A stretch of DNA of 64,000 nt, taken from an uncultured Clostridia bacterium (GTDB lineage: Bacteria > Bacillota > Clostridia > Christensenellales > Aristaeellaceae). Of this stretch, positions 32,747 through 52,037 are shown piece after piece (the first letter of the stretch is position 1; every line of letters begins with the position of its first letter). A program made the position numbers and the translations under genes. The notes under the pieces are model-generated. The model made no database searches. It was not told the DNA's origin and saw only the letters and a list, made by a program, of their open reading frames with translations. The stretch spans positions 11,277 through 75,276 of the forward strand of contig CAKURR010000013.1 in NCBI GenBank assembly GCA_934675735.1, written 5' to 3'.

Positions 32747-32787
32747 ATCCGCCCCCGTACCGAGCTTCTTCCGGCGCGGGGGCGGAT
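32747..32787 (-). terminator. terminator at the end of the minus-strand island operon
   Basis: ATCCGCCCCCG / CGGGGGCGGAT 11-bp stem. On the minus strand it is followed by TTTATGCTTTTC, 22 nt after the last stop codon. Confidence 0.65.
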
Positions 32788-32808
32788 ACATTTATTTATT
32801 CTCTCGTC

Positions 32809-34092
32809 TTAAAACAGATTCCCATCCTCATCGAACTGCATATCCTTCGGCTCTTCGAGCACCTCAAAGCGCTCATCGCCGCGAATCTCTTCCAGCACGG
32901 CTTCGGAGACCCAGATATTTTCGAGATGGAGCGTATCCTGAATCCGCACGATGCGCAGGCGCTCCTTATCCGAGCCGATGGCCGTTTTCACCGCGGCCTT
33001 GATGGCGCGGCGCTGGTCGTCAAAGACCATCGGGATTTTGGCCGAATCGGTGCCGCCCGTCGTCAGCAGGTTGGGATAGGTGGTGTTGAAATCCATCTTC
33101 TCAAACATTCTGCGCGTCGTGGTATCCGCCGCGCCCAGACCGACGGCCGCGCCGTGGCTCTGCTCGGTGATATCCAGCACGGCGATTTTTTTCGCCCGCC
33201 CCTCGCGGCTGATGCCGGATTCCAGCGAGAAGGACTTGGTGATGTTGGTATCCATACCCGTTCCGCTGATGTTTTTGCCGATGTAATCGATGACCAGCAC
33301 GTCGAGGTTTTCGGGGATGATGCGCGGCATCAGCGAGCGCGCCTTGATGAGCATATCCGGCTCTTTTTCGCGGATTTCATCCGGCAGAAGCGCGGCGAGC
33401 GCATAGGTGCGGTCAAACGCGTTTTCCAGAATCGCGACGCCGAAGAGAATCTTTTCCTTTTGCAGGAACTGATTGCCAATAAGCTCGATGCTCTCGCCCA
33501 TTCGGCGGCGGCCGCGGTTGTGAACCGTTTCCGCGCCCTTCTGCTTGCCCAGACCGATGCACATCATCTTGAACAGGCCGCTCTCATAGCGCCCGCGGAA
33601 GCCCGTATGCGGCTTCACACGATTGATGACGACAATGCCGTCCGCCTCGTGCGCATAGCGGTCGATGTAGCACGGCGTTCCATCCTCCAGCTGCGAAAAC
33701 TGCACAACCTCCATGCCGGCGCGAATCGGGCAGCCCATCGTCTCTTCCGTAATGCCAAACCCTTCCAAAATGGCGCGCTGCCCCTCCGCAACCGCGCCGC
33801 CGTGGCTGCCCATCGCGGGGATGATAAACGGCTTCGCCCCCAGCGATTTGAGGAAGGCGACCGTCTCCCGAATGAGCAGGTCGATATGGCAGATGCCGCG
33901 GCTGCCCGCCGTCACGCAAATGGACATGCCGGGCTTCACCGTTTGGCGAATCGCTTCGCGGTTCAGCTCCTCACGCAGCACCTCCGCCGCGTCCTCCAGC
34001 TCGGAGGCTTCAAAAATCTGGCGAACCCGCGCCATTTTCGGCAGCCGAACCGGATCGACCAGCGCGTTCACCTTTTCGTTATGTTCATGCAT
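32809..34092 (-). CDS. LarA-fold (DUF2088-like) protein lacking the cofactor-tethering lysine
   Basis: 427 aa. By-eye alignment to LarA: AMGSHGG aligns with ATGFHRP, and KPHTGFRGRYESG aligns with ESHFFAGFSGGRKSV. The histidines are kept, but the Lys position is Glu. Its start lies 3 nt after the larA-homologue stop, with the SD inside that gene. Confidence 0.6.
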   Translation of the reverse strand: MHEHNEKVNALVDPVRLPKMARVRQIFEASELEDAAEVLREELNREAIRQTVKPGMSICVTAGSRGICHIDLLIRETVAFLKSLGAKPFIIPAMGSHGGAVAEGQRAILEGFGITEETMGCPIRAGMEVVQFSQLEDGTPCYIDRYAHEADGIVVINRVKPHTGFRGRYESGLFKMMCIGLGKQKGAETVHNRGRRRMGESIELIGNQFLQKEKILFGVAILENAFDRTYALAALLPDEIREKEPDMLIKARSLMPRIIPENLDVLVIDYIGKNISGTGMDTNITKSFSLESGISREGRAKKIAVLDITEQSHGAAVGLGAADTTTRRMFEKMDFNTTYPNLLTTGGTDSAKIPMVFDDQRRAIKAAVKTAIGSDKERLRIVRIQDTLHLENIWVSEAVLEEIRGDERFEVLEEPKDMQFDEDGNLF

Positions 34093-34095
34093 GGC

Positions 34096-35370
34096 TCATT
34101 CTCCCTCTCCGAAACACGGGATGATTTCCGACGCGCTGGGCACGACGAGGATTTTGGCGTCCCTGCCGTATCGCGCAAGCATCGCGTCAATCGCCTCTTC
34201 CACCGTGTCAAACGCATCCATAAACATGGCGCGCGCCTGCTCCCGGCTAATCGCGCTGCCCGCCAGCACGACGTGGAACGCCTTGGCCGCTTTGGCAATC
34301 ATATAGGCCTTCCCGTTGCCGTTGGGCTTGTGCCCCTCCCGCAGGAAGGCTTCCATCACCTCGTCGGGCGAAGCGGCCTTTTCCAGCAGGATGCCGGGCT
34401 TGCCCGCCCCGTCCGGACAGGCGGCGCAGAGAATCACGCCGCCGTTCTCGCGACAGAGCATTTCCGCGCAGGCCAGCGACTTTTGGGACTGATGCAAATC
34501 GATATCCCGCGGGAAGCCGCCCGGGCTGACGATGACGATATCGGGCTTTTCGGGCACGTGCACCGTCCAGATTCGGCGGCTGAGTTCCGCGCCCGCGTAG
34601 AACGCCTCCTCCAAATCGCCCGAAACGCAGCGGACGATTTCGCGCTCGGTGTTTTCCACCGCGTTGACGATGAAATCCACGCCCGCGATGCGCGCCGCGC
34701 GCAAGGCCTCCTCGTGGAAGCGGTTGCCCGCCAGCACGCCCATCGACGCCTTTTCGGGGCGAATCGGGAAGAAATGGTGTTTTTGGATGGTCTCCAGCCC
34801 CGCAATGCCGGGCACGACGCTCTTCCGCCCGCCGGAGAAGCCCGCGAACTGGTGCGGCGCGATGCAGCCCGTCAAAATCTTCAAATCGGCCTGTGCAAAC
34901 GCGCGGTTGACGACGACGCGCACGCCGCCCTCGGTCGTGCCCAAATCCGCCAGCTGCGCCTCATCGCGGCAGTCGTGGTGAACGATGCGGAAGCGGGCCG
35001 TCACCTCTTCGCCGAAGGCCGCTGTCAGCTCCTCCGTCGTGTTTTTGCGATGCTGGCCATAGGCCACAATCAGCGAAATCTGCTCGTCGCGCATGCCCGC
35101 CAGATGCAGCTTTTTCGCGATTTCGAGCACCATTTCGCCGCCCGGGTAGGGGCGCGTGATGTCGTTGACGACAATCGCCGCGTTTTTTCTGCCGCGCGCC
35201 AAAACTTCCAGCTTTTCCGAGCCGATGGGTGCATCCAGACTGCGCGCGATTTCCGCGCGCACGTCGGCCGCGCCGGGCGTATAAGCAGGCACGGCGACGC
35301 CCATCAGATTCGGAACCCGCACATCGAACGCGTTATGGCCGATTTTCAGCCGAACCGTGTCCTGCGTCAT
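34096..35370 (-). CDS. LarA-family nickel-pincer-cofactor 2-hydroxyacid racemase/epimerase homologue
   Basis: 424 aa. Compared with L. plantarum LarA: SLDAPIGSEKLEVLARGRKNAAIVVNDITRPYP versus SLDNPIGSDKLEELARGKHNIVIISSDHTRPVP; VAYGQHRKNTTEEL (His108 equivalent); CIAPHQFAGFSGGRKSVVPGIAG (His174 and Lys184 equivalents); QKHH (His200 equivalent). Confidence 0.85.
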   Translation of the reverse strand: MTQDTVRLKIGHNAFDVRVPNLMGVAVPAYTPGAADVRAEIARSLDAPIGSEKLEVLARGRKNAAIVVNDITRPYPGGEMVLEIAKKLHLAGMRDEQISLIVAYGQHRKNTTEELTAAFGEEVTARFRIVHHDCRDEAQLADLGTTEGGVRVVVNRAFAQADLKILTGCIAPHQFAGFSGGRKSVVPGIAGLETIQKHHFFPIRPEKASMGVLAGNRFHEEALRAARIAGVDFIVNAVENTEREIVRCVSGDLEEAFYAGAELSRRIWTVHVPEKPDIVIVSPGGFPRDIDLHQSQKSLACAEMLCRENGGVILCAACPDGAGKPGILLEKAASPDEVMEAFLREGHKPNGNGKAYMIAKAAKAFHVVLAGSAISREQARAMFMDAFDTVEEAIDAMLARYGRDAKILVVPSASEIIPCFGEGE

Positions 35371-35383
35371 ACGCTTCCCTCCG

Positions 35384-36576: not shown

Positions 36577-36870
36577 TTACAGGTCGCCGCGCCCGCGCAG
36601 GGCTTCCAGATTATGCACGTGCACATACTCGCCCTCGGCGATATCTTTCGTCGCCGCGCCGATGACCTCGCCGTATTTGACGATATGCTCGCCCTTGGCA
36701 ATGGGCTGAGCCGCAATCTTATGGCCGTAGGGCACGTTGCCGATGACCTTGATATCGCGGCAGTTGCCTTTTTTGTCGCGCAGTTCCACAACGTCTCCGT
36801 CCTTCACGTCGTTGACGAACAGGGTGGCCACGTTGTCCTTTTCATCCACGATAAGCGCAATTTTCGCCAT
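36577..36870 (-). CDS. UxaA/SuyA-type dehydratase small subunit (SAF domain)
   Basis: 97 aa. DNVATLFVNDVKDGDVV..YGHKIAAQPIAKGEHIVKYGEVIGAATKDIAEGEYVHVHN is a SAF-domain signature. Its stop lies 14 nt before the large-subunit start. Confidence 0.8.
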   Translation of the reverse strand: MAKIALIVDEKDNVATLFVNDVKDGDVVELRDKKGNCRDIKVIGNVPYGHKIAAQPIAKGEHIVKYGEVIGAATKDIAEGEYVHVHNLEALRGRGDL

Positions 36871-36916
36871 ATCCCTTTTCACTTCTTTCTTCATTCTTTT
36901 CCGTTTTGAAGGAAAC

Positions 36917-36994
36917 GGGGCTGTCAAGCCCTTAAACCCGACATTTCAAGAATAAATAAGTCTTTGAAATCTTTGATTTAAGCTTGACAGCCCC
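36917..36994. repeat. 78-nt long-hairpin element E1 (GGGGCTGTCAAGC ... GCTTGACAGCCCC)
   Basis: Near-perfect inverted repeat filling most of the fumC / uxaA-small spacer. A homologous element lies at 50164-50350. Confidence 0.85.
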
Positions 36995-37000
36995 CTTGAT

Positions 37001-38380
37001 TTATTTCTGAATCGGAGAAACCATCTTCTCGGGGCGGACGATTTCGTCGAATTTCTCGCCCGAGAGCAAACCGAGCTTCACGGCCGCCTCTTTGAGCGTC
37101 AGGTTCTCGCGGAACGCTGTCTTGGCGACCTTCGCCGCGTTCTCATAGCCGATATGCGGGTTGAGCGCGGTGACCAGCATCAGCGACTGGTTGAGGTATT
37201 CCCGAATCTTTTCGCGGTTGGGCTTGATGCCGCGGGCGCAGCGCTCTTCAAAGGAGAGCATCACGTCGCCCAGCAGCCGCGCGGATTGCAGGAAGTTGTA
37301 GATGCACACGGGCATGAACACGTTCAGCTCGAAGTTGCCCTGAGAAGCCGCCATGCTCACCGCCACGTCGTTGGCCATTACCTGCACGGCGACCATCGTC
37401 ATCGCCTCGCACTGGGTCGGGTTGACCTTGCCCGGCATGATGGAGCTGCCCGGCTCGTTTTCCGGAATCAGCAGCTCCCCGATACCACAGCGCGGGCCGG
37501 AGGACAGCAGACGCACGTCGTTGGCAATCTTCATCAAATCCGTCGCCAGCGCCTTCATCGCGCCGTGAACGTAGACAAGCTCGTCCTTGCTGGTCAGCGC
37601 GTGGAACTTGTTGGGCGCGGTGATGAACGTCTTGCCCGTCAGCGCGGAAATCTCCGCCGCGACGGTCTCGCCGAACTCGGGCAGGGCGTTCAGGCCCGTG
37701 CCGACGGCCGTGCCGCCCAGCGCAAGCTCGCGCACCTCGTCGAGGGACCGGCGAATCATCTTCGCGTCCTTTTCCAGCGAAGCGGCCCAGCCGCTGATTT
37801 CCTGCCCCAGCGTCAGGGGTGTGGCGTCCTGCAAGTGGGTGCGGCCCACTTTGATGACGTCGGCATACTCCTCGCTGAGCTTCACAAACGTCTTTTCCAG
37901 CACGTCGATGGCGGGCAGAACGTGGTCCTCCACCGCAATCAGCGCGGCGATGTGCATCGCCGTGGGGAACGTGTCGTTGGAGCTCTGCGACTTATTCACA
38001 TGGTCGTTGGGGTGAACCAGCTTTTCGCCCAGAATCTCGTTGGCGCGCGCGGCCACCACCTCGTTGACGTTCATGTTGCTCTGCGTGCCGCTGCCCGTCT
38101 GCCAAACCACCAGCGGGAACTCTTCATCCAGCTTGCCTGCGAGAATCTCGTCGCACGCGGCGGCAATCGCGTCCGTGCGCTTCTTGTCGAGATTGCCGAG
38201 CTTGCAGTTGGCCAGCGCGGACGCTTTCTTGAGAATGGCGAACGCGCGAATTACCTCGTGCGGGATGGTCTCCGTGCCGATGGGGAAATTTTCGTGGCTG
38301 CGCTGGGTCTGCGCGCCCCAGTAGTGATTGGCGGGCACACGAACCTCGCCCATCGTGTCGTGTTCAATGCGATATTCCAT
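37001..38380 (-). CDS. fumC: class II fumarate hydratase
   Basis: [28 protein letters not shown] and the signature [29 protein letters not shown] lies before the ATG. Confidence 0.9.
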
Positions 38381-39774: not shown

Positions 39775-41175
39775 TTATGACCTCCCTAACATTGTTCTGA
39801 GCGAATCCGTCAAATCGCGGATTCGGGTATCATCCTTCGCGCCGAGCACGCGTTCCATCACGGCTGCGGCTTCGTCGGCCGAAAGCGTCATTTCGGCCAG
39901 CGACATAAACTTGTTTTCAATCACGCTGTGCGGCGGCCTGCCCTCGGGCAGGTTGACCGTCTTTTCCAGCGTGCGCCCGTCCTTGAGGGTGACGGTCACC
40001 TTCTCCGGCCTGCTCGCCGGATAGACCGCCGTAAACGCGGGTTCCTCGCGCACCGTGACGCGCGCGCCGAGCGCCGCGGCCGCCTCGCTGTTCAGGCTCT
40101 CGGGCGTAAACTCGCTGAGCGTCACGCGCCCGTTGAGCAGCATCATCGCGATGCAGTACGGCAGAGAGAACTTGGCCTTGAGGTTGGTGCTCACGTTGTA
40201 AGCCGAGCACAGCTCGCGCGCCGTCTTGTAAACGGCGACGTCGATGCGCTCCACATCCGCCGCGCCGAACGCGTTTTCGCGCATCAGCTGCTGAAGGGCA
40301 TCGAGCGCGCAGTGCGTGTGCCCGCAGGAGGCGTGAATCTTATAATACGCGTCCTCCATCATCAGCGGGTCGCCCGCCTTGGGCACCATGAAGCTCAGGT
40401 CGTCCTTGCTGCGCGCGGCGTGAGCAAAGCCCCGCTCGGCGGCAAAGCCGTCCTCCGGCGCGGTGAACTGCCAGTTTCCGGCCAGCTCCGCCGCCGCCGC
40501 GCCGTTTCGGGCCGCGTTGCCGACCGTCACGAGCTTGGCTTCCGTGCCGAACACGTGCACCAGGCCCGAAGCCGTCGTCGCCGCAATGCCCATCGCGGTT
40601 TCCGTCTGCTCCGGCGAAAGCCCCATGATTTTGGCGCAGGCCGCCGCCGCGGCAAACGTGCCGCATGTGCCCGTCGTGTGCCAATACACATAGTGGTCGG
40701 GGTTGGCCGCGCCGCCCATGCGGATCATGGCTTCATAGCCCGCCGCAACGCCCAGCGCGTATTGGCCGAAGCTCGCATCCAGCGCCTCCGCCTCGGCCAG
40801 CGCCGCCGAAACGACCGGCGCGCCGGGGTGGGTAATGGCGATTTTATTGGTGTCGTCATACTCGAGCGCGTGGCTGAGCATGCCGTTGCAGAAAGCCGCC
40901 GTGCCGACGGAGGTCTTTTCCGCCAGACCGAACGCGGTCGCCTGCGGATTGCCGCCGCAGGCGCGCGCATAGCCCTTGATTCGCTTCGCGACGTCGCCGT
41001 TCTGCGCCGCGATGACACAGCCGAGCCAATCCAGCGTCTTATAGCGAAGGTCGATTCGGTTCGCTTCGCCGAGCTGCTCGCTCGAAAGCGCGCAGAGAAA
41101 TTCGCAAAGCTGTCGGGTCAGATTCAAAAGCGCATCCCCCATTTCATCGTTTTTGGGCCGACGGGGCGAAATCAA
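39775..41175 (-). CDS. MmgE/PrpD-family protein
   Basis: About 455-466 aa with PrpD-type strings (LDWLGCVIAA, LEYDDT, HPGAPVVSAAL, GTCGTFAAAAA). The start is uncertain: TTG 41175 overlaps the tctA stop as TTGA, or ATG 41142. Confidence 0.8.
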   Translation of the reverse strand: MISPRRPKNDEMGDALLNLTRQLCEFLCALSSEQLGEANRIDLRYKTLDWLGCVIAAQNGDVAKRIKGYARACGGNPQATAFGLAEKTSVGTAAFCNGMLSHALEYDDTNKIAITHPGAPVVSAALAEAEALDASFGQYALGVAAGYEAMIRMGGAANPDHYVYWHTTGTCGTFAAAAACAKIMGLSPEQTETAMGIAATTASGLVHVFGTEAKLVTVGNAARNGAAAAELAGNWQFTAPEDGFAAERGFAHAARSKDDLSFMVPKAGDPLMMEDAYYKIHASCGHTHCALDALQQLMRENAFGAADVERIDVAVYKTARELCSAYNVSTNLKAKFSLPYCIAMMLLNGRVTLSEFTPESLNSEAAAALGARVTVREEPAFTAVYPASRPEKVTVTLKDGRTLEKTVNLPEGRPPHSVIENKFMSLAEMTLSADEAAAVMERVLGAKDDTRIRDLTDSLRTMLGRS

Positions 41176-42739: not shown

Positions 42740-43192
42740 TTAGAAGAACATCGCCGTGAAGTGCGTGCCGAGGAACTGGGAGAACGCGACGTACAGCCCA
42801 ATGCTGACCAGCAGCGAGGACGGCACCAGCACCTTCCACTTCTTGTAGCCCAGAATCACGGACGTGCACAAAATCAGCAGGAACGTCGAGATGGTGTAGC
42901 TGAAATATTGGAAACCGAAGTAATACGCGAAGAGCAGCGCGGTGATGAGCGCCACGCGGAGGTAATCCGGCTTGGCCTTGGCCGGCTTATCCTTCGCGCC
43001 GGTCTTTTTATCCTTCATCAGTTCCAGAATCGAGAAAACGACGATCACAACGCCCAGCAGCACGATTGCGCCCGCAATCAGCTTCGGCCAGAACGCGCTT
43101 TTGGCCTTGAGCGAACCGCTCATGTAATAAATCCACGCGCCAAACGCAAGCGAAGCCACGCCGACGCCGAAGTCTTTTTTGTGTTGAAGCAT
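42740..43192 (-). CDS. tctB: tripartite tricarboxylate transporter, small membrane subunit
   Basis: 150 aa with 4 TM segments, 17 nt upstream of tctA. AAGGGAGG lies before ATG 43192. Confidence 0.75.
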   Translation of the reverse strand: MLQHKKDFGVGVASLAFGAWIYYMSGSLKAKSAFWPKLIAGAIVLLGVVIVVFSILELMKDKKTGAKDKPAKAKPDYLRVALITALLFAYYFGFQYFSYTISTFLLILCTSVILGYKKWKVLVPSSLLVSIGLYVAFSQFLGTHFTAMFF

Positions 43193-43393: not shown

Positions 43394-44353
43394 TTATTCT
43401 TCGAGGAGGTGATAGATGCTTTCCATGTTCTGATAATCCTGGTCGAGCATGGCCTGGAAGTCGGCGGCGCTGAGATAAGCGGCCGGGAAGCCCGCGTTGT
43501 CAAACGCAGCCAGCACGTCCGGATCTTCCATAACTTTCTTGAGCGCGTCGCTCAGGATGGTAACGACCTCGTCCGGCGTGCCCTTCGGCACGGCGTAGCC
43601 GCGATACGCGCCGTAGACGAACGGGTCAAAGCCCGCTTCTTCAACGGTCGGCACATCCGGCAGAGCCGCGGTGCGCTCGTTCGCGCAGACAGCCAGCGGA
43701 ACGATCTTGCCGTCGGCAATCAGGGTCGCCGCGCCGCCGTAGGTGGTGAAGCCCATCTGCACGTGGCCGCCGGCCAGCTGCACAACCTGCTCGGAGGAGC
43801 CGTTGGTGTGAACATATTCAAAGTTCACGCCGAACTGCTGAGCGAAAATCAGGCTGGCGATGTGGTGAGAGGTGGAGAAGCCCGGGGTGGAGTTGGTCAG
43901 GATGCCTTCCTGACCGGCCTTCATCAGCTCGGCGAGCGTCGTGAAGCCGGAATCGGCGGAAGCGACGATGACCTCGGGATCATAGCAGACCTGACCGACC
44001 GCAATCGCATCTTCCATGCCGTACTCGGTGTCGCCGGAGAGAACGTTGGTGACGAAGCTGGAGGTCAGCGCCAGAACGGTGTAGCCGTCGGGCGCCTGAT
44101 TGAGGGCGTAGGTCTGGCCGATGATGGCGCCGCCGCCTTCCTTGCATTCCACAACGACGTTGGTGTCGAGCACCTTGCCCAGCGCGTCGGCGACGATGCG
44201 GGTCGTCAAATCGACGTTGCCGCCCGCCTTAAACGGAACGATAATGGTGATGGTTTTGCCGTTCGGGAAATTGGTTTCCGCGCTTGCCGCCGCGCAGCAG
44301 AACACGAGCGCCAGAGCAGCAAACAGAGCAACGATTCGGGACAGTTTCTTCAT
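43394..44353 (-). CDS. tctC: tripartite tricarboxylate transporter substrate-binding protein (Bug/TctC family)
   Basis: 319 aa with a signal peptide (MKKLSRIVALFAALALVFCCAAASA) and Bug-family core (KPGGNVDL-like AGGNVDLTTRIVA, PGFSTSHH). Confidence 0.85.
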   Translation of the reverse strand: MKKLSRIVALFAALALVFCCAAASAETNFPNGKTITIIVPFKAGGNVDLTTRIVADALGKVLDTNVVVECKEGGGAIIGQTYALNQAPDGYTVLALTSSFVTNVLSGDTEYGMEDAIAVGQVCYDPEVIVASADSGFTTLAELMKAGQEGILTNSTPGFSTSHHIASLIFAQQFGVNFEYVHTNGSSEQVVQLAGGHVQMGFTTYGGAATLIADGKIVPLAVCANERTAALPDVPTVEEAGFDPFVYGAYRGYAVPKGTPDEVVTILSDALKKVMEDPDVLAAFDNAGFPAAYLSAADFQAMLDQDYQNMESIYHLLEE

Positions 44354-44418: not shown

Positions 44419-44448
44419 ATTGTAGCATGATGCACAGAAAATGTACAA
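44419..44448 (-). promoter_or_regulatory. candidate promoter of tctCBA and downstream genes
   Basis: On the minus strand: TTGTAC (44448-44443), an 18-nt spacer, then TACAAT (44424-44419), inside an AT-rich 400-nt spacer. Confidence 0.55.
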
Positions 44449-44756: not shown

Positions 44757-44803
44757 TTAAAAAGAAAAAAAGAAAAGCGGGCCTGTCAAGCTGACAAGCC
44801 CGC
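44757..44803 (-). terminator. rho-independent terminator after the LysR gene
   Basis: GCGGGCTTGTCAG / CTTGACAGGCCCGC stem on the minus strand, followed by TTTTCTTTTTTTCTTTTT. Confidence 0.75.
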
Positions 44804-44836
44804 CCGATAAAAAAACGTTTGAGTTTTGTGGCCCGA

Positions 44837-44934: not shown

Positions 44935-45849
44935 TTACGCTTCCGGCGACCACTTGAGCGATGTGGCGATATCGATGAATTTCTGTAAATCGGGGTTCTC
45001 CTCCGCGCCGAAGGCACAGGCCACATACAGCTTGCGCAGCAGGCGGTTTTTGCCGATGTGGCAGTAGCAGGGCTGCTGCGTCGGCGAGCACAGGCGAACG
45101 GTCGTCTCCGGTATGAAAGCCAGGCCCGTGTCGTGAAAGACCAGATTGTTGGCGTTTTCCGTGCTCTTGCAGTAAAGCGTGATGTTCGGCCTGAACCCCG
45201 CCTTCTTCGCTTCGTTCATCAGCATCACGCCGATGCGCCGCTTGCCCTCATACGAAATGAAGCTTTCATCCTTGAAATCGGCCAGCTCCGCAACGGGTCT
45301 GCCGTCCGCGGCAAGGGGCAGGCCCGCAATCGCGGGGTGATTCGGCGGCAGGGCCAGAAAAATCTCTTCCTGATAGATTTCGTGCACCGAAAGCATTTGC
45401 GGCAAAGGATCCATCACAATCGCCGCATCCAGCTTCTTGTTTTCAATCTCTTCGATGAGCGTGTTGGTGAAGCCGTCCACAATATCCAGCTCCACGTCGG
45501 GCCGCACCTTGCGAAAGAGCGAAACAATGCGCATCAGAAAAAAGCGCTGATACGACGGCGCAGCGCCCAGCCGCAGCGTCGCCGTCTCTCCCCGCGAAAG
45601 CGCGTTGAGCCGATTGAGCATGTGATCCTCCAGCTCCAGCATGCGCCGCGCGTCCGCAACGATGATTTCCCCCGCCTTGGTCAGCTTGGTCTTTTTGTTG
45701 TGCTCGAAAACGGGCATGCCGATTTCCTGCTCCAAACGCTGAATGGCCTGGCTGAGCGCGGGCTGCGTCACATATAAAACCTCTGCCGCCTTGGAATAGC
45801 TTCCACAATCAACAATCGTGGTCAAATAACGAAGGGTCGACAGTTTCAT
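44935..45849 (-). CDS. LysR-family transcriptional regulator
   Basis: N-terminal HTH MKLSTLRYLTTIVDCGSYSKAAEVLYVTQPALSQAIQRLEQEIG plus a LysR substrate-binding domain. Confidence 0.9.
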   Translation of the reverse strand: MKLSTLRYLTTIVDCGSYSKAAEVLYVTQPALSQAIQRLEQEIGMPVFEHNKKTKLTKAGEIIVADARRMLELEDHMLNRLNALSRGETATLRLGAAPSYQRFFLMRIVSLFRKVRPDVELDIVDGFTNTLIEEIENKKLDAAIVMDPLPQMLSVHEIYQEEIFLALPPNHPAIAGLPLAADGRPVAELADFKDESFISYEGKRRIGVMLMNEAKKAGFRPNITLYCKSTENANNLVFHDTGLAFIPETTVRLCSPTQQPCYCHIGKNRLLRKLYVACAFGAEENPDLQKFIDIATSLKWSPEA

Positions 45850-46019
45850 CGCAAAATCACCTTATCTAATCATCCTATTTATTTTTTATTATAGCATATT
45901 TTCTATGACAAGACCAGCAAAAAAAAAATAAACAATGGGAAAAAGCCCCCTTTCCGACCTTTTGAGCCGAAAAGTTGGCGTTTTCCCATTGACTTTATTT
46001 GTTTTAACCGTAAAAAAGT

Positions 46020-46278: not shown

Positions 46279-48207
46279 TTATTTCTGCGCGTCCCGAATG
46301 GCGTTGAGCAAACCGCCGTGCAGCAGCAGCTCGGCCTCATGCGGCGTAATATCCAGCCGAAGCGGGATGTCGCGCCCCGTCGTCTCGTCGCGAAGGATGA
46401 CGCGGCCGCTTTGCAGCGCGCCGTGCAGCGACGCAAAGGCCAGCACGTCGCCCTCGCCGATGGCGTCGTAATCCGCGCCGCTTTCAAACGTCAGCGGCAG
46501 AATGCCGAAATTTATCAGGTTCGAGCGGTGGATGCGCGCAATGCTCTTGGCAATCACCGCGCAAACGCCCAGATAGCGCGGCATGACGGCGGCATGCTCG
46601 CGGCTCGAACCCTGCCCGTAGTTTTCGCCCGCCACAATCACGGGATTGGCGCATCTGCGCGCGCGCTCCGCGAAATCCGGCACAAGGCGGATGAACGTCG
46701 ATTTGGATGCCTCCGGTATGTTCGCGCGCAGCGACACATACTGCGGCCCGGCGGGCGCAATCTCGTCGGTGGAGACGTGATCCCCCAGCTTAATCACCAC
46801 GTCCGAACGCATCGCGTCCGGCAGCGCGTCAAACACGGGCATGGGGCGGATGTTCGGCCCGCGCACGATTTCCGTGCCGCGCCCGTCCTTCGGCGGGAAA
46901 ATCAGCATCGCGTCATCCTGCTCGTAAACGTCCGGCTCGTGCACCTGCGCCAAAATCGCGGGGTCGATGACCTCGTCGGCGCTCGCCAGCCGCCCCAGCA
47001 CCGCGCAGGCCGCCGCCGATTCCGTCGAGGCCAGATACACGGAGGAATCCACCGTGCCGCAGCGCCCCTTGAAGTTGCGGTTGGAGGTGCGCACGGAAAC
47101 GCCGCCCGTCCGCACGGATTGGCCCATGCCCACGCACGGCCCGCAGCCGCATTCCAGAATGCGCGCGCCGCTCTGCACAAAGATATCCATGCTCCCATCC
47201 TCGATGAGCATGCGGTAAATCTGCCGCGTGCCGGGGCTGACCACCAGGCTCACGTTTGGCGCGGCGACATGCCCCTTGAGCACGAGCGCCGCGCGGCGCA
47301 GATCGCTGTATGAGCTGTTGGTGCAGCTGCCGATATACACCTGATCCACCGCAACCTTTTCCGCCTCGTCAATCGGGCAGACGTGGTCGGGCAGGTGCGG
47401 CAGCGCGACCATCGGGCGGATATCCGACAGGCAGCACTCGATTTCCTCGTCGTAGGCCGCGTCGTCCGAGGCCGCCAGCGGCACGTAATCCGCCGCGCGC
47501 CCGTTCGCCGTCAGATACGCCTTGAGCACGTCATCCGACGGAAACACGGAGGACGTCGCACCCGTCTCCGCGCCCATGTTGGCCAGCGTCATGCGCTGGG
47601 GCACGGTCAGGTTTTTCAGCCCTTCGCCCGCGTATTCGAGCACCTTGCCCTTGCCGCCCGCCACGCCGATTTGGCCGACGAGCCGGAGCGCCGCGTCCTT
47701 GGCGCTCACGCCCGGGCGCAGCGCGCCCGTCACGCGCACCCGAACCACCTTCGGCATGCTCAGCCGCAAGGGGAAACCGGCCATCGCCGCCGCCACGTCA
47801 ATGCCGCCCACGCCGATGCCCAGCATGCCCGCCGCGCCTGCGGAGGGCGTGTGGCTGTCGTTGCCGATGAGGATTTTGCCGGGCTTGGAAAACCGCCCCA
47901 GATGCACGAGGTGGCAGATGCCGTTGCCCGCGCGGGAGAGCACAAGGCCGTATTTCTCCGCAATGGTTTTGAGATACGTGTGGTCGTCCGGATTTTTATA
48001 ATCCATGTACACCATGTTGTGATCCACATAGCTGACGGAAAGCTCCGTTTTCACCCGCTCGATGCCCATGCTTTCAAACGCGATGTAGCAGAGCATGCCC
48101 AGCGCATCCTGGGTCAGGGTCTGGTCTACGCGGAGCGCAATCTCTTCCCCCGTCTCCAGCGTGCCGGAAACGAGGTGCGCCGCCAAAATCTGCCGCGTGA
48201 TGTTCAC
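46279..48207 (-). CDS. aconitase-family hydro-lyase, fused large plus swivel domains (paralogue 2)
   Basis: Motifs GNDSHTPSAGAAG, IGSCTNSSYSDL, CGCGPCVGMG (Fe-S ligands) and the swivel-domain GENYGQGSSREHAA. The GTG start 48207 (VNITRQILAAH) aligns with the N-terminus of paralogue 1 and overlaps its stop as GTGA, with AAGGAAGG upstream. Confidence 0.85.
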   Translation of the reverse strand: MNITRQILAAHLVSGTLETGEEIALRVDQTLTQDALGMLCYIAFESMGIERVKTELSVSYVDHNMVYMDYKNPDDHTYLKTIAEKYGLVLSRAGNGICHLVHLGRFSKPGKILIGNDSHTPSAGAAGMLGIGVGGIDVAAAMAGFPLRLSMPKVVRVRVTGALRPGVSAKDAALRLVGQIGVAGGKGKVLEYAGEGLKNLTVPQRMTLANMGAETGATSSVFPSDDVLKAYLTANGRAADYVPLAASDDAAYDEEIECCLSDIRPMVALPHLPDHVCPIDEAEKVAVDQVYIGSCTNSSYSDLRRAALVLKGHVAAPNVSLVVSPGTRQIYRMLIEDGSMDIFVQSGARILECGCGPCVGMGQSVRTGGVSVRTSNRNFKGRCGTVDSSVYLASTESAAACAVLGRLASADEVIDPAILAQVHEPDVYEQDDAMLIFPPKDGRGTEIVRGPNIRPMPVFDALPDAMRSDVVIKLGDHVSTDEIAPAGPQYVSLRANIPEASKSTFIRLVPDFAERARRCANPVIVAGENYGQGSSREHAAVMPRYLGVCAVIAKSIARIHRSNLINFGILPLTFESGADYDAIGEGDVLAFASLHGALQSGRVILRDETTGRDIPLRLDITPHEAELLLHGGLLNAIRDAQK

Positions 48208-50126
48208 GATTGCCCGCCTTCCTTTCGCCGCGCGCATACCCACGGCACCAGACCGCCCGCGCGCCAAATCTCCTTTTCGCGCTCCGTCATCGCCGCTTTG
48301 ACGATGATGTCGCAGCCCCGCGTCAAGTTGCGCACGGTGATGCGCTCCCCCGCCGCCAGCTGCTCCCGAACATGCGCAATGCTCAGTTTGTCGCCCCGCT
48401 CAATCAAAGCTCTGTCCTCCGCCCGCTCGAAAATCAGCGGCAGAACGCCGTAATTGATGAGGTTCGCCCGATGAATGCGGTGCATGGAAACCGCAAGCAC
48501 GGCTTCCACGCCGAGCACCATGCAGCCGATGGCCGCATGCTCGCGGCTCGAGCCCTGCGCATAGTTCGCCCCGCCGACGATAATCGAGCTGCCCATCGCC
48601 TTGGCGCGCTCGGGGAAGGTCGGGTCGATATGGGCGAACAGGTGCTCCGCCAGCGCGGGAATGTTGGTTCTGAGCGTAAGCACATGCTGCTGAGGCGGCA
48701 CGATGTCATCCGTGGAAATGCCGTCTCCCAGACTCAGCACGACCTCCGCTTCGATGCTCTCCGGCGGCTTTTCCCGCACGGGGAGCGGGCGGATGTTGTC
48801 ACCCATCAGAATCGGCGCGTTCGAGGGCGCGTATTCCACATAGCCGGGCATCTTTTCACGCTGCTCTTCATCTGGAATCGCCGCCAGCGCTTCATAGCCC
48901 GAAAGCTCAAACGGCGAGGTCAGCGTGCCGCTGACAGCCGAGGCCGCCGCCGTCTCCGCGCTGCACAAAAACATGCGCGCGTCGCCCGTGCCCGAGCGGC
49001 CGGGAAAGTTGCGGTTCGTGCTGCGCAGAATGGTCGCCCCGGGCTCGGGCATCTGCCCGATGCCCATGCACGGGCCGCAGCCGCATTCCAGCACGCGGAC
49101 GCCCGCTTCCAGATAGACGCTCAGCCAGCCGTTTTTCTGCAAAGCATTCATGATTTCGCGGCTGCCGCACTGCAAAAAGACGTTGACATCCGGCGAGACG
49201 CGCCTGCCGCGGAGCAGCGCCGCCGCGCGCGCCAAATCGATATACGAGCCGTTGGTGCAGCTGCCGATGACAATCTGCGAAAAGCTTTCCCGCTCGGCCT
49301 GCGAAATCGGCACGCCGTAATCCGGTTCGCCCGGCAGGGCGACCATCGGCTCGACCTCGGTCAGATTCAGCCGGATTTCGCTGTCATAAACCGCGTCCGC
49401 GTCGGCGGCAAGGGGCTTATACTGCGCTTCTCTGCCCCGCGCGGCCAAAAAGCGGCGGGTCGTCTCATCCGACGGGAACACGGAGGACGTCGCGCCCGCT
49501 TCCGCGCCCATGTTGCACAGCGTCGCCCGCTGGTGGATGGAAAGCGACGCCGCGCCCTCGCCGCCGTACTCCGCCACGCAGCCCAGAAAGCCCTTGACGC
49601 CAATCTTCGCCAGCAGCGCCAGCGCCGCATCTTTGGCGCTCACGCCCGGGCGGAGCGCGCCTTCCAGCGTGACGCGCACCACGCGCGGCTCAGAGAAGAA
49701 CACCGGCACGCCGCTCATGGCGACGGCGATATCCATGCCGCCCATGCCCACGCCCAGCATGCCCAGCGCGCCCGCCGTCGCCGTGTGGCTGTCCGCGCCC
49801 GCGAGCAGGCAGCCCGGGCGCGCGAAATCGTGATAATACAGGCTGTGGCAAATGCCGTGCCCCGGCTCGGAATACACCGCGCCGTAACGCTTTGCACAGC
49901 TGCGCATAAAGCGCTGATCTGCCGCCGTGGACGGCGACATGCCCACCAGATTGTGGTCGTTGAAGATAAACGCCCGCTCCACATTGATGCGGGGCAGATT
50001 CATCGCGCCGAACCCCATGAACGCCAGCAGGCCGGACATATCGTGCACCAGCGTGTGGTCCGGCAGATAGCCGCCGTCCGCCGTTCGGTGCGCGCTCAAG
50101 ATTTTTTCAGTCAGCGTCTGACCCAT
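48204..50126 (-). CDS. aconitase-family hydro-lyase, fused large plus swivel domains (paralogue 1)
   Basis: Motifs GADSHTATAGALG, IGSCTNGSYIDL, CGCGPCMGIG and GANYGQGSSREHAA. GGAGGAGAAC lies before ATG 50126 (MGQTLTEKILSAH). Confidence 0.85.
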   Translation of the reverse strand: MGQTLTEKILSAHRTADGGYLPDHTLVHDMSGLLAFMGFGAMNLPRINVERAFIFNDHNLVGMSPSTAADQRFMRSCAKRYGAVYSEPGHGICHSLYYHDFARPGCLLAGADSHTATAGALGMLGVGMGGMDIAVAMSGVPVFFSEPRVVRVTLEGALRPGVSAKDAALALLAKIGVKGFLGCVAEYGGEGAASLSIHQRATLCNMGAEAGATSSVFPSDETTRRFLAARGREAQYKPLAADADAVYDSEIRLNLTEVEPMVALPGEPDYGVPISQAERESFSQIVIGSCTNGSYIDLARAAALLRGRRVSPDVNVFLQCGSREIMNALQKNGWLSVYLEAGVRVLECGCGPCMGIGQMPEPGATILRSTNRNFPGRSGTGDARMFLCSAETAAASAVSGTLTSPFELSGYEALAAIPDEEQREKMPGYVEYAPSNAPILMGDNIRPLPVREKPPESIEAEVVLSLGDGISTDDIVPPQQHVLTLRTNIPALAEHLFAHIDPTFPERAKAMGSSIIVGGANYAQGSSREHAAIGCMVLGVEAVLAVSMHRIHRANLINYGVLPLIFERAEDRALIERGDKLSIAHVREQLAAGERITVRNLTRGCDIIVKAAMTEREKEIWRAGGLVPWVCARRKEGGQS

Positions 50127-50163: not shown

Positions 50164-50350
50164 GGAGCTGTCAAGCTGATAAATCTGATATTTCAAGAAT
50201 AGCTAAGTATTTTAGGTTTCCAAAGAGGTTTTCGGTCGTTGCCGCCTGCGGCGGAAACAAACGACAGAAAACGAAAGCCCCATATCTCCTAAGACGGAGT
50301 AATACCCGGAAAATTGCCTCTTGAAATGTTCAGTTTAAGCCTGACAGCAC
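50164..50350. repeat. long-hairpin element E2 with a nested insertion
   Basis: The arms GGAGCTGTCAAGC..ATTTCAAGAATA (50164-50200) and TCTTGAAAT..GCCTGACAGCACC (50319-50350) are homologous to E1. The interior carries the 67-nt module at 50214-50280. Confidence 0.8.
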
Positions 50351-50381
50351 CGATTGCTCGCTTAACTGCCGCCCGACAGCG

Positions 50382-51551
50382 TTAAATTCTCGCCACGCCG
50401 GTCTCGCGGGCCGCCTTCATCACGGCGTCCGCCACGGCGCGGGCCACGCGCTTATCCAGCGCATCCGGCAGAATGTAATCCACGGAGAGCTTGTCGCCCA
50501 CCAAATCGGAGAGCGCATGGGACGCGGCCATCTTCATCTCTTCGTTGATGCAGGTGGCGCGGCAGTCCAGCGCGCCGCGGAAAATGCCGGGGAAAGCCAT
50601 CACGTTGTTGATTTGGTTCGGGAAGTCGCTGCGGCCCGTGCCCACAACCGCCGCGCCCGCGGCCTTCGCCTCGTCGGGCATGATTTCGGGCACCGGATTC
50701 GCCATCGCAAAGACAATCGGGTCTTTGGCCATCGAGCGAACCATGTCCTGCGTCAGCACGCCGGGCGCGCTCACGCCGATGAACACATCCGCGTCCTTCA
50801 CCGCGTCGGCCAGCTTGCCGCGCAGATGCTCGCGGTTGGTGACCTTAGCCATCTCCGCCTGCGCCGGATTCAGCTCTTCCATGCCCTCGTCGATGATGCC
50901 GAAGCGGTCAACCAGCGTCAAATGCTTCACGCCCAGGTTCAGCATGTGCTTGGAAATCGCGATGCCCGCGCTGCCCGCGCCGTTGAGCACCACGCGCGCC
51001 GTGCCGATATCCCTGCCCGTCACCTTGAGCGCGCCGAGCAGCGCGGCGGCGACGACGACGGCCGTGCCGTGCTGGTCGTCGTGGAAAACGGGGATATCGC
51101 AGATTTCCTTCAGCCGACGCTCGATTTCAAAGCAGCGCGGCGCGGCGATATCCTCCAGATTGATGCCGCCGAAGGAACCGGCCAGCAGGCTGATGGTCTG
51201 CACGATTTCGTCCACATTCTTGGAGCGGACGCAGAGCGGGAACGCATCCACGTCGGCAAACGCCTTAAACAGCGCGCACTTGCCCTCCATGACGGGCATG
51301 CCCGCCTCCGGCCCGATATCGCCCAGACCAAGCACCGCGGTGCCGTCCGTGATGACGGCGACCAGATTGGCGCGGCGCGTCAGCTCGTAGGATTTGTTCA
51401 CGTCGTCATGAATGACCATGCAGGCTTCCGCAACGCCCGGGGTATACGCCAGGGACAGGTCGTGGCGGTCGTTGATGGGCGCGCGGGAAATGACCTCGAT
51501 TTTGCCCTTCCACTCATAGTGCTTGGCCAGCGATTCTTCACGGATATTCAT
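50382..51551 (-). CDS. NAD(P)-dependent malic enzyme (short form)
   Basis: 389 aa. Motifs HDLSLAYTPGVA, GTAVLGLGDIGPEAGMPVMEGK, FGGINLEDI, FHDDQHGTA and GAGSAG. The SD AAAGG lies 9 nt before ATG 51551. Confidence 0.9.
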   Translation of the reverse strand: MNIREESLAKHYEWKGKIEVISRAPINDRHDLSLAYTPGVAEACMVIHDDVNKSYELTRRANLVAVITDGTAVLGLGDIGPEAGMPVMEGKCALFKAFADVDAFPLCVRSKNVDEIVQTISLLAGSFGGINLEDIAAPRCFEIERRLKEICDIPVFHDDQHGTAVVVAAALLGALKVTGRDIGTARVVLNGAGSAGIAISKHMLNLGVKHLTLVDRFGIIDEGMEELNPAQAEMAKVTNREHLRGKLADAVKDADVFIGVSAPGVLTQDMVRSMAKDPIVFAMANPVPEIMPDEAKAAGAAVVGTGRSDFPNQINNVMAFPGIFRGALDCRATCINEEMKMAASHALSDLVGDKLSVDYILPDALDKRVARAVADAVMKAARETGVARI

Positions 51552-51747
51552 GTGTTTCATCCTTTCTTTGCTCGAATATGAAAGCGTCTGTTTGGTACAG
51601 TCTTTTGAATTTCGACTTCTTTTTTGTTTAATCTTACCATATATTCGTCGCAAAGTAAAATTCGTTTTCATGATTGAATCAATAAGCAAATGTGATGACG
51701 GCCCGCGCGGCGGCCATTTTTCTGGACACCAGCTTAAAATATAAGAA

Positions 51748-51897
51748 TCAGGTTATCACTATGGATACTTCTCTGAATTTAGCGGGAGGCATCCATTTTG
51801 TTTTAGCTTGAATTCTACTGTTATTGTAATAGTCGATATAATCTGCAATGGCCTTGGAGAAAGCTTCAAAGGAAGGATAGTTCTTCTCAAAACCATA
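51748..51897 (-). mobile_element. IS3-family transposase (OrfB) C-terminal remnant, about 50 codons
   Basis: My own translation of the minus frame ending at TGA 51750-51748 is YGFEKNYPSFEAFSKAIADYIDYYNNSRIQAKTKWMPPAKFREVSIVIT. The xIxxYIxYYNxxRxQ..L..xxPxxFR tail is typical of IS3/IS150 integrase-core proteins. There is no upstream coding continuation. The segment is AT-rich, and the hairpin CCCCCAATACCGG/CCGGTATTAGGGGG at 51904-51934 lies at the break. Confidence 0.7.
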
Positions 51898-52037
51898 AAA
51901 ATACCCCCAATACCGGGTGTCCGGTATTAGGGGGACATATCAAAATTCTTTCCGTTTTTTCATTTTGGATTTTCCGGTTTGCCTTTTGGCGTTCGGCGCG
52001 ATATAATGAAGAAACGCTCTTAGAAGGGGAGGATTTC

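Follow-up and report, generated by a model that had tools for sequence, protein, structure and literature searches.

A conserved 14-gene cluster of an uncultured Clostridia bacterium that may catabolise a 2-substituted succinate

In Agrobacterium tumefaciens BY6, the degradation of iminodisuccinate (IDS) is carried out by a PrpD-family enzyme and a fumarate-releasing lyase; the succinyl carbon is epimerised and the conjugate is then cleaved stereospecifically. To our knowledge no other PrpD-family epimerase paired with a lyase of the fumarase superfamily has been characterised; this system was reportedly the subject of work by Cokesa et al. in 2004. A gene pair of the same kind, with the PrpD-like and class I lyase genes 2 nt apart, is found in the DNA analysed here, a stretch of 64 kb (hereafter the window) from an uncultured Clostridia bacterium of the Aristaeellaceae (assembly GCA_934675735.1, contig CAKURR010000013.1, positions 11,277 to 75,276 of the forward strand), where it belongs to an island of 14 codirectional minus-strand genes covering about 19 kb (32809-51551). 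We describe this island, compare it with related loci and propose, with a probability of roughly 0.4, that it catabolises a 2-substituted succinate, probably a thioether of the S-(2-succino)cysteine (2SC) type, to fumarate and pyruvate.

Several other described systems resemble parts of the island. In the yxe route, 2SC enters through an ABC importer, is acetylated, cleaved as N-acetyl-2SC and deacetylated, and the route serves sulfur salvage; its lyase is of class I and frees fumarate from a succinate conjugate, as we propose for the island (Hillmann et al. 2022, PMC9706529). The SuyAB route for sulfolactate and cysteate, known from Paracoccus pantotrophus, Chromohalobacter salexigens and Cupriavidus pinatubonensis, employs a split lyase with SAF and UxaA-type subunits that acts on a 2-hydroxy acid carrying a beta leaving group after the configuration at C2 has been inverted; in the cysteate pathway of Paracoccus, SuyAB is preceded by an aminotransferase and ComC. 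Among the homologues of the lactate racemase LarA, group 5 (Mar1) is associated with UxaA (COG2721) in 100% of cases and with TctC/TctA in 26%, and group 22 is recognised as an uncharacterised group (Desguin et al. 2020, PMC7583248). The methylcitrate segment, like the island, brings PrpD-family and aconitase-family enzymes together in one cluster.

The window was analysed through a listing of its open reading frames (ORFs) and through Pfam and NCBIfam profile searches of its proteins. All 14 genes claimed in the initial annotation were recovered with the families given there: a malic enzyme, two aconitase-family hydro-lyases, a LysR regulator, TctC, TctB and TctA, which together form a tripartite tricarboxylate transporter (TTT), a MmgE/PrpD-family protein, a lyase resembling adenylosuccinate lyase (ASL-like), a class II fumarase, the two subunits of a split UxaA/SuyAB-type lyase and two LarA homologues, here LarAH_a and LarAH22 (Table 1). 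Gene calls on identical metagenome contigs in ENA give the same 14-gene set.

The island departs from each of the described systems. The IDS system concerns a synthetic chelator broken down aerobically by a C-N lyase in a proteobacterium, whereas the hosts of the island are strict anaerobes; the gene pair is embedded among genes for a TTT importer, fumarase, malic enzyme, LarA homologues, split UxaA and aconitases; the linking atom would, from the context, be sulfur rather than nitrogen; and the two lyases are likened by role, not by sequence. From the yxe route the island differs in its TTT importer, its additional PrpD-family enzyme, the proposed flow of carbon to pyruvate and a lyase of a separate clade; no homologues of YxeL (GNAT) or YxeP were found in the window, whose ABC matches are confined to a distant methionine transporter. 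Unlike the SuyAB route, a nickel-pincer LarA homologue would racemise the substrate instead of two dehydrogenases, and no sulfite-handling genes lie nearby. LarAH_a falls below the cut-offs of both models for the group 5/6 malate racemases, and the methylcitrate enzymes PrpB, PrpC and PrpE are missing from the island.

The argument of the initial annotation that known routes do not fit was borne out, since citrate lyase, PrpB/PrpC, isocitrate dehydrogenase and coenzyme A enzymes are absent from the island and its 10-kb flanks; the citrate-lyase, methylcitrate, itaconate, citramalate and tricarballylate routes all lack key enzymes there. Its further statement, that the gene set matches no known pathway, agrees with full-text literature searches on hydroxycitrate catabolism, trans-aconitate with PrpD, LarA with sulfolactate, the Tad1 structure, PrpD with succino or mercaptosuccinate, and the co-mention of PrpD, ASL, TTT, aconitase, LarA and altronate, none of which returned a description of the cluster; in the paper on the cysteine desulfidase CyuA, PrpD-family proteins appear only as structural neighbours. 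The PrpD, aconitase, fumarase and adenylosuccinate-lyase families presumably correspond to COG2079, COG1048, COG0114 and COG0015. These four groups are unlisted in the published survey of larA neighbourhoods, which looked no further than three genes to either side of the larA homologue (PMC7583248). The combination of genes is shared by none of the described systems and is taken as new, while the enzyme families and the association of LarA, UxaA and Tct were already known; the enzymes of the cluster probably have new specificities.

The conservation of the island was followed with a profile of PrpD-like homologues, scanned over one genome per species; 80 loci were fetched and searched with all 14 window proteins (loci are cited below by L numbers). 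The species of the window is outside the scanned collection, in which the best identity to its PrpD-like protein is 62%. An ASL-like gene lies within 10 kb of the PrpD-like gene in 25 of the 80 loci, accompanied by SAF-UxaA genes in 21 of the 25, and in all but one of these (24 of 25, the exception being L036) the PrpD-like and ASL-like genes are adjacent; the same adjacency of PrpD-like and lyase genes is seen in Proteobacteria. Near-complete synteny is found in about 17 Clostridia species, including sheep-rumen metagenome-assembled genomes (MAGs), Pseudoflavonifractor and Angelakisella MAGs, Enterocloster asparagiformis DSM 15981, E. lavalensis and a Clostridium thermobutyricum MAG, and many hosts of the cluster live in the rumen or the gut. 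Across syntenic Clostridia loci TctC is 61-72% identical and the UxaA-like large subunit 71-86%, the latter falling to about 50% in distant phyla; most Clostridia loci, and the Acidobacteriota as well, have a LysR gene with the cluster. A reduced core, consisting of the transporter, the PrpD-like and ASL-like proteins and the split UxaA with or without LarA homologues or aconitase, is present in Negativicutes (Sporomusa, Pelosinus), Acidobacteriota, Nitrospiraceae and Syntrophales, sometimes with a DcuC-family carrier instead of Tct and GntR instead of LysR. The initial annotation had considered that the sub-blocks might be juxtaposed by chance; the gene-neighbourhood search finds them together in other genomes, and the 14 genes are a conserved functional unit.

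By comparison of its variants the island resolves into three modules. Module M1 comprises TctCBA, the PrpD-family enzyme and the class I lyase, usually followed by fumarase and malic enzyme; M2 is composed of the split UxaA/SuyAB-type lyase and a LarA homologue, either of group 22 or of the lactate-racemase type; M3 contains the two aconitase paralogues with another LarA homologue, LarAH_a. The most widely conserved part is the set of transporter, PrpD-like and ASL-like genes, which occurs without any aconitase or LarA gene. In Caproiciproducens sp. NJN-50, examined in a separate look-up, M1 and M2 are present and the genes for TctCBA, PrpD, ASL, FumC and malic enzyme form one block, and the same order stands behind a single aconitase gene in a BRH_c25-like contig (L095). 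Five lineages at phylum level have M1 next to M2, namely Clostridia, Negativicutes, Acidobacteriota, Nitrospiraceae and the BRH_c25 type. LarAH_a accompanies the aconitase pair in the window and in L007, L010-L014, L022 and L027, and aconitase is missing from roughly half of the clusters (for example L009, L015, L016, L021, L087, L088 and L096). In a Pseudoflavonifractor MAG an AbrB-duplication membrane protein (L009:15634-16836) occupies the place of LarAH_a between UxaA and LarAH22 and may be an additional transporter.

The PrpD-family protein of M1 is not a 2-methylcitrate dehydratase by the NCBIfam models (36 bits against cut-offs of 458-575), and PrpB and PrpC are lacking in the island and its flanks. 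Its nearest relatives of solved structure are the IRG1-like protein of Bacillus subtilis (146 bits) and IDS epimerase (141 bits). Seven columns are invariant among 23 homologues: H91, E94, H105, Y151, H155, K203 and K268. In methylsuccinate isomerase, His88, Glu91, His102, Tyr148, His152, Lys202 and Lys266 bind the dicarboxylate and catalyse the reaction, and the characterised members of the MmgE/PrpD family all enolise a C4-dicarboxylate unit or a substituted succinate (PMC12290011). The invariant residues of the island protein stand at nearly the same positions, the correspondence having been drawn through numbering and not through an alignment; we propose that the protein epimerises or enolises a substituted succinate at C2.

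The class I lyase retains the catalytic (general-acid) histidine, in the motif GRSHTQQALP, and the SS loop GSSTMPHKRNP, as expected for the aspartase/fumarase superfamily, and scores below every NCBIfam cut-off, with PRK08937.2-4 (477 bits) as its top and XcbD (466 bits) as its second-best match. Identification as PurB was rejected (308 bits against a cut-off of 326, 20% identity to Escherichia coli PurB), as was identification as PcaB (374 against 595 and 302 against 356 bits). In phmmer searches the window lyase scores 356-371 bits with the 2SL-type lyases of canonical yxe-type 2SC loci of Pantoea and Niallia (such loci being taken as lyase, GNAT, ABC transporter and amidohydrolase), 324 bits with XcbD, 289 bits with 3c8t, a "fumarate lyase" of unknown function, 280 bits with Tad1, 267 bits with CMLE and about 180 bits with adenylosuccinate lyases. 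By sequence, 2SL-type proteins are thus its nearest relatives of a characterised type; 2SL converts S-(2-succino) thioethers to fumarate, and XcbD couples cysteine with sulfoacrylate. A neighbour-joining (NJ) tree groups the window lyase with other cluster-associated lyases. A single clade uniting all PrpD-associated and 2SL-type lyases to the exclusion of others was rejected, with 0% bootstrap support and an interleaved Cupriavidus/A. vitis branch. We propose that the ASL-like protein is a lyase of an X-succinate, where X stands for the substituent at C2, and gives fumarate.

The subsequent branch from fumarate to malate and pyruvate, already drawn in the initial annotation, is well supported by comparison, as FumC and malic enzyme follow the lyase directly in several taxa. 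FumC is 77-84% identical at the same position in L007, L009, L021 and L022, and malic enzyme is in the cluster in L009, L011, L015, L016, L021, L088 and L095; the order in L021 is ASL, malic enzyme, FumC. In L015, which lacks the class II FumC, malic enzyme is followed by a class I fumarase of two subunits, a non-orthologous replacement. Since fumarase was here replaced and not lost, hydration of fumarate appears to be an integral step.

The neighbours of M1 in other taxa bear on the nature of X. Clusters with M1 only, in two Syntrophales species and a Clostridia MAG, adjoin a full-length homologue of the E. coli cysteine desulfidase CyuA (33-34% identity, E values of 1e-58 to 1e-72) in two different gene orders. 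In Proteus mirabilis the lyase-PrpD pair and a LysR gene stand next to genes for DcuC and for a cystathionine beta-lyase (388 bits, cut-off 366), and a Sporomusa locus ends with a pyridoxal-phosphate-dependent (PLP) lyase of cysteine/methionine metabolism. These cysteine-enzyme neighbours, together with a lyase whose nearest relatives are enzymes acting on bonds of the cysteine-sulfur/succinate type, favour a succinate conjugate over a hydroxy-tricarboxylate, with the sulfur of a cysteine-type thioether (2SC or a close relative) as the probable X. Compounds of this type are stable tricarboxylates that arise spontaneously from fumarate and thiols; an epimerase would be needed because non-enzymatic addition should yield both configurations at the succinyl carbon. 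On an E. coli FDAARGOS_1260 plasmid (L099, NZ_CP069439.1, about 3-11 kb), a broken FumC, DcuC, a PLP transsulfuration enzyme, a 2SL-like lyase and a PrpD-family gene adjoin a group II intron; these remnants resemble a decaying M1-type cluster on a conjugative IncF plasmid.

Taking as observed the gene content, the conservation, the family membership and the intact catalytic residues, we propose the following pathway, in which the substrate, the order of steps, the chemistry of M2 and the role of M3 are inferred from context and family resemblance. The transcription units of the island would be controlled by the LysR regulator. TctCBA would take up a carboxylate bearing the 2-substituted succinate group. 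The PrpD-family protein would enolise the succinyl C2-H and interconvert the two configurations, as IDS epimerase and methylsuccinate isomerase do, and the ASL-like lyase would perform a stereospecific beta-elimination giving fumarate and X-H. Fumarate would be hydrated to L-malate by fumarase and L-malate converted to pyruvate and CO2 by malic enzyme. A LarA homologue would set the configuration of the remaining fragment, or of its 2-hydroxy-acid analogue, from which the split UxaA/SuyAB-type enzyme would form a 2-oxo acid by beta-elimination, most simply pyruvate; in other taxa the three-carbon remainder may go straight to pyruvate through CyuA or a PLP lyase.

The split UxaA-type enzyme of M2 has the architecture of SuyAB of the hpsNO cluster of C. 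pinatubonensis, a SAF-domain protein with a separate large subunit. The latter is 40% identical to this genuine SuyB and 51% identical to a copy on a Sporomusa termitida plasmid. Assignment as altronate or galactarate dehydratase (UxaA/GarD) was rejected, the GarD model giving 228 bits against a cut-off of 731 and the protein being split over two genes. We propose that the pair is a metal-dependent beta-eliminating lyase or dehydratase of a 2-hydroxy acid. A parallel between M2 and the cysteate pathway is suggested by genes added in related clusters: an aspartate-type aminotransferase and an Ldh_2 protein resembling L-sulfolactate dehydrogenase in Acidobacteriota, and Ldh_2 in a Negativicutes-like contig ordered like the Pelosinus locus L035. 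In the assembly of one of the Acidobacteriota (L087:17358-18561) the aminotransferase-like gene is frameshifted into two ORFs; it is intact in L097 (400 aa).

LarAH_a retains D72, R75, H108, H174, K184 and H200, the catalytic and nickel-pincer-nucleotide-binding residues of LarA, and is a predicted nickel-pincer-dependent racemase or epimerase of a 2-hydroxy acid. Its closest NCBIfam model is the malate racemase LarAH6 (410 bits); a plain malate/tartrate racemase role is not supported, since the cut-off of that model is 500, the other malate-racemase model gives 353 against 462 bits, and the protein reads GGRK and not GGHK. LarAH22 shares 44% identity with its counterpart from a module of Sporomusa termitida and has no match by sequence among solved structures. 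That Sporomusa protein was tried as the published malate racemase LarAH62 and rejected; it is unrelated to LarAH_a and a relative of group 22. The module itself (L089, plasmid pSPTER, 5977-13155) is stand-alone, with an MR_MLE dehydratase, TctCBA, LarAH22, SAF and UxaA followed by GntR, and would offer a simpler system in which the substrate of group 22 may be found. The maturation genes larB, larC and larE were not found within the window; in the BRH_c25-like contig larE (334 bits) and a LarB-like AIRC gene (L095:18188-19371) are about 6 kb from the related cluster.

In three Clostridia clusters the LarA homologue is of the lactate-racemase type and has a cysteine at the position of LarA T359. 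The one of E. asparagiformis DSM 15981 (L017:14064-15341, NZ_CP102272.1) has the cysteine signature of LarAH42, an enzyme cloned from this strain, and appears to match it by signature and strain. LarAH42 has only weak activity on lactate and 2-hydroxybutyrate and prefers the latter; the sections of the LarAH42 paper that were searched make no mention of a PrpD, lyase, enolase-type dehydratase or SAF-UxaA context. The native substrate of LarAH42 is probably outside those assayed in that publication.

In M3, aconitase paralogue 1 keeps the cluster cysteines and the catalytic residues, with Q72 replaced by His and the motif DSHTATAG; its orthologue stands first in the pair in L011 and L017. In paralogue 2, 19 checked active-site residues of pig mitochondrial aconitase are conserved, with N170 replaced by Ser. 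The equivalent of R580, an arginine through which aconitase binds the third carboxylate group of citrate, is kept in both, and M3 may handle an analogue of a tricarboxylate. In E. asparagiformis a third PRK07229-type aconitase gene (L017:19072-21126) lies on the opposite strand 2 kb past the cluster; its product shares 48% identity with paralogue 2 of the window and likewise has His in place of Q72.

A number of points weigh against a 2SC-type substrate. Its assignment draws on context and family resemblance, the window lyase is only 39-40% identical to 2SL-type lyases and falls in a separate clade of the NJ tree, and the UxaA-like protein is no nearer to SuyB (40%) than to copies linked with genes for sugar acids (44-45%) or to split UxaA proteins linked with a 2-keto-3-deoxygluconate permease (44%). 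The window contains no CyuA-like, PLP-lyase, aminotransferase or Ldh_2 gene, so that the entry of cysteine into the 2-hydroxy-acid module is left unexplained; nor does it hold a homologue of the YxeL acetyltransferase or the YxeP deacetylase, its GNAT genes having been tried as YxeL homologues and showing no similarity. Both aconitase paralogues look, by their residues, like genuine tricarboxylate hydro-lyases, for which a simple 2SC scheme has no role, and desulfurisation of cysteine by four enzymes is less economical than by CyuA. Genes for sugar-acid dehydratases of the enolase superfamily in some clusters suggest, moreover, a hydroxy-dicarboxylate as substrate of M2. A more elaborate version, which we hold to be rather improbable, would see in the cluster an oxygen-independent and energy-yielding route of anaerobes for the spontaneous adducts of fumarate and thiols (2SC and its relatives), combining three hitherto undescribed activities: a PrpD-family S-succino epimerase, a new 2SL clade acting on the free compound without acetylation, and a nickel-pincer racemase with a SuyAB-like desulfurising lyase dependent on metal; the latter would strip sulfur from a 3-thio-substituted lactate, and the aconitases would serve aconitate-derived adducts.

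The initial annotation had described the island as a funnel for an imported branched and/or hydroxylated polycarboxylate, probably occurring as several stereoisomers. No specific backing was found for this substrate; what stands is that a tricarboxylate intermediate is possible, given the arginines kept in the aconitases. Its list of compounds to be tested already included IDS-type compounds and sulfolactate. In such a funnel for stereoisomers of a hydroxylated tricarboxylate (isocitrate, allo-isocitrate, hydroxycitrate, cis- or trans-aconitate), which we consider unlikely, the LarA homologues would epimerise the CHOH carbon, the PrpD-like protein would epimerise or dehydrate the carboxymethine carbon, UxaA would dehydrate a 2,3-dihydroxy form, and the aconitases and the ASL-like enzyme would hydrate and dehydrate the cis and trans double bonds, the ASL-like enzyme being a trans-aconitate hydratase, a Tad1-like decarboxylase or a CMLE-like cycloisomerase. 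The funnel gives the best account of the two aconitases, with their cluster, catalytic residues and R580 equivalent, and of the company they keep with LarAH_a. Citrate is the classic cargo of TTT systems, plant tricarboxylates are plentiful in the rumen and gut where many hosts live, and the relatives of solved structure include Tad1 (280 bits) for the lyase and cis-aconitate decarboxylase for the PrpD-like protein. However, about half of the clusters have no aconitase, and elsewhere the core pair sits with cysteine-degrading enzymes and without hydroxy-acid enzymes. The conversion of a C6 tricarboxylate to fumarate would also require cleavage of a C-C bond, for which no aldolase or lyase is present, whereas fumarase and malic enzyme come directly after the lyase, which keeps its general-acid histidine and scores 2SL-type proteins and XcbD above Tad1 or CMLE.

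If the conjugate were instead linked through nitrogen, as in natural compounds resembling IDS or in N-(1,2-dicarboxyethyl) amino acids, for instance those of the aspergillomarasmine and ethylenediaminedisuccinate (EDDS) type, the epimerase and a C-N lyase would give fumarate and an amino acid, which would pass through transamination and reduction to the LarA and UxaA enzymes. We judge this quite improbable. Of the two solved structures nearest to the PrpD-like protein one is that of IDS epimerase, the IDS system is the only precedent known to us for an epimerase/lyase pair, C-N cleavage is the commonest chemistry in the class I lyase superfamily, whose general-acid histidine the lyase keeps, and an aspartate-aminotransferase-like gene is found in the Acidobacteriota clusters. 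On the other hand, IDS and EDDS-type compounds are rare or synthetic while the cluster has a wide distribution in anoxic habitats, CyuA and cystathionine beta-lyase in the neighbourhood indicate a fragment containing sulfur, and the nearest characterised lyases cut or make C-S bonds.

It is very doubtful, too, that the cluster is an organosulfonate pathway in which the split UxaA is a true SuyAB releasing sulfite, a LarA homologue takes the place of the two-dehydrogenase racemase, and the lyase/PrpD-like pair works on sulfosuccinate, cysteate or sulfoacrylate. The split architecture and the 40% identity with SuyB of C. pinatubonensis, where a TctC gene follows suyAB, are compatible with it, as are the Ldh_2 and aminotransferase genes in Acidobacteriota and Ldh_2 in the Negativicutes-like contig, which mirror the Paracoccus cysteate pathway, a TauE gene 8 kb from an Acidobacteriota cluster, and XcbD, an enzyme handling sulfoacrylate, as second-best NCBIfam match of the lyase. 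Against it, no sulfite reductase or exporter was found in the window or beside the Clostridia clusters, the bona fide FumC (766 bits) and malic enzyme speak for carboxylate intermediates, and the UxaA-like protein is not specifically nearer to SuyB than to other split UxaA proteins.

Finally, the island might consist of functionally separate operons with common end products, held together by co-regulation or co-transfer: a tartrate/malate/aldarate module (Tct, LarA homologue and UxaA, with or without an enolase-type dehydratase), an aconitase pair and an unrelated lyase/PrpD pair. This view can point to at least three transcription units set by terminators, to the solitary M2 of the Sporomusa termitida plasmid, which has Tct and GntR genes of its own, to the solitary M1 of Syntrophales, Proteus and Cupriavidus, to aldarate-type genes ahead of the Caproiciproducens cluster, to the published association of LarA group 5 with UxaA (100%) and TctC/TctA (26%), and to malate racemases, which epimerise tartrate too; it has very little probability in our eyes, since M1 and M2 lie side by side in the five lineages despite varied gene orders and transporters (Tct or DcuC), LarAH_a is without the GGHK malate-racemase signature, and the published table shows no malate or tartrate activity for the LarAH42-type enzyme.

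Whatever its substrate, the island is made of several transcription units and not of one operon, as indicated by a terminator-like hairpin behind the aconitase pair, a strong terminator that follows lysR and a promoter-like site ahead of tctC (Table 1). This last site is located in an A+T-rich spacer, and a Shine-Dalgarno sequence precedes the ATG of tctC. From tctB onward the spacers are, in order, 17, 29, 2, 18, 130, 14, 13 and 3 nt; the range given in the initial annotation, from an overlap to 18 nt apart from the 130-nt gap, mostly holds, except that tctA and the PrpD-like gene are separated by 29 nt with the start ATG 41142 (they overlap by 4 nt if the start is TTG 41175). ATG 41142 is most likely the true start and not that of the longer TTG ORF, because an exact-sequence look-up matched the ATG product and not the TTG-ORF product. 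The 130-nt gap between fumC and the SAF gene, seen also in the ENA gene calls, folds as predicted into a long hairpin (z -4.4, none of 200 shuffles folding as well), possibly an attenuator or a site of RNA processing. The start/stop overlap GTGA noted for the aconitase pair is likewise present, with the GTG at 48207-48205 over the upstream TGA stop at 48206-48204; the metagenome gene caller picks ATG 48237, not GTG 48207, for paralogue 2. The arms of the fumC-SAF hairpin (36917-36994) and the lysR terminator (44779-44793) have the core CTGTCAAGC in common. With up to 3 mismatches the window holds 6 matches to this core where 2.6 would be expected, and 3 of 100 shuffles reach at least 6, which is weak evidence for a repeated element.

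Table 1. Features of the island, listed by position in the window
Feature	Position	Strand	Assignment and remarks
Second LarA-superfamily protein, LarAH22	32809..34092	-	NCBIfam NPN_iso_grp_22, 527 bits, cut-off 400
LarA homologue, LarAH_a	34096..35370	-	Pfam Lar_N, LarA_C
UxaA/GarD-type large subunit, 392 aa	35384..36562	-	Pfam GD_AH_second, GD_AH_C
SAF-domain small subunit of split UxaA/SuyAB-type lyase	36577..36870	-	Pfam SAF; aligns to GarD N-terminus
Long hairpin element	36915..36997	-	In 130-nt fumC-SAF spacer; dG -43.5 kcal/mol
Class II fumarate hydratase FumC	37001..38380	-	TIGR00979, 766 bits, cut-off 665
Class I lyase, ASL-like, 457 aa	38399..39772	-	Pfam Lyase_1, 145 bits; ADSL_C
MmgE/PrpD-family protein, 455 aa	39775..41142	-	Pfam MmgE_PrpD_N, 184 bits; MmgE_PrpD_C, 128 bits
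TctA large membrane subunit	41172..42722	-	Pfam TctA, 521 bits
TctB small membrane subunit	42740..43192	-	Pfam TctB; 150 aa
TctC solute-binding protein	43394..44353	-	Pfam TctC, 141 bits; signal peptide/lipoprotein-like N-terminus
Promoter-like site	44419..44447	-	Ahead of tctC; TGTACA, 17 nt, TACAAT, extended TG
Intrinsic terminator, predicted	44775..44805	-	After lysR; 14-bp stem, 8 G-C pairs, T run
LysR-family regulator	44935..45849	-	Pfam HTH_1, LysR_substrate
Terminator-like hairpin	45950..45974	-	After aconitase pair; 10-bp stem, T-rich tail
Aconitase-family hydro-lyase, paralogue 2	46279..48237	-	PRK07229, 823 bits; 652 aa (ATG 48237) or 642 aa (GTG 48207)
Aconitase-family hydro-lyase, paralogue 1, 640 aa	48204..50126	-	PRK07229, 683 bits, cut-off 612
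Malic enzyme, short NAD(P) form	50382..51551	-	Pfam malic, Malic_M; 389-390 aa by gene calls
Terminator-like hairpin	51904..51933	-	Upstream of malic enzyme gene; 13-bp stem, 8 G-C pairs; upper edge of island

The LysR protein of the island reaches no NCBIfam equivalog at its cut-off. The genes flanking the island are unrelated to it, and directly downstream there is a tRNA-Ala(GGC) gene (32596-32671). A block of low GC content (30001-32000, 0.486 against about 0.60) contains two GNAT acetyltransferase genes and a TetR gene, and the lysR region (44-46 kb) is low in GC too (0.515); these stretches may mark borders of the island or later insertions. Between 25459 and 30550, 2-7 kb downstream and on both strands, there are genes for an ATC_hydrolase family protein, an Rrf2-family regulator, a cysteine-synthase-like PALP enzyme and a methionine-type ABC transporter (Lipoprotein_9, NIL ATPase and permease). 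By position alone, this group related to sulfur amino acids fits the cysteine theme; inside the island no sulfite- or cysteine-handling genes were found. Further away (22630-24402), an MCRA-family (oleate hydratase-like) gene lies beside patatin and alpha/beta-hydrolase genes and is unrelated to the island.

If the proposed degradation of a 2SC-type thioether is correct, anaerobes of the gut, the rumen and sediments would feed on succinated thiols, and a sink yielding carbon and sulfide would exist in the gut for compounds that are stable products of fumarate chemistry, serve as disease biomarkers and also arise from fumarate-ester drugs. We know of no degradation of succinated thiols other than through Bacillus-type yxe routes. 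Whatever the substrate, the cluster provides a physiological context for the group 22 LarA homologues, for the poorly active LarAH42, for a large uncharacterised MmgE/PrpD clade and for a clade of class I lyases that is routinely mis-annotated as adenylosuccinate lyase or PcaB. The hypothesis is directly testable, as three cultivable strains carry the cluster: E. asparagiformis DSM 15981, E. lavalensis and Caproiciproducens sp. NJN-50.

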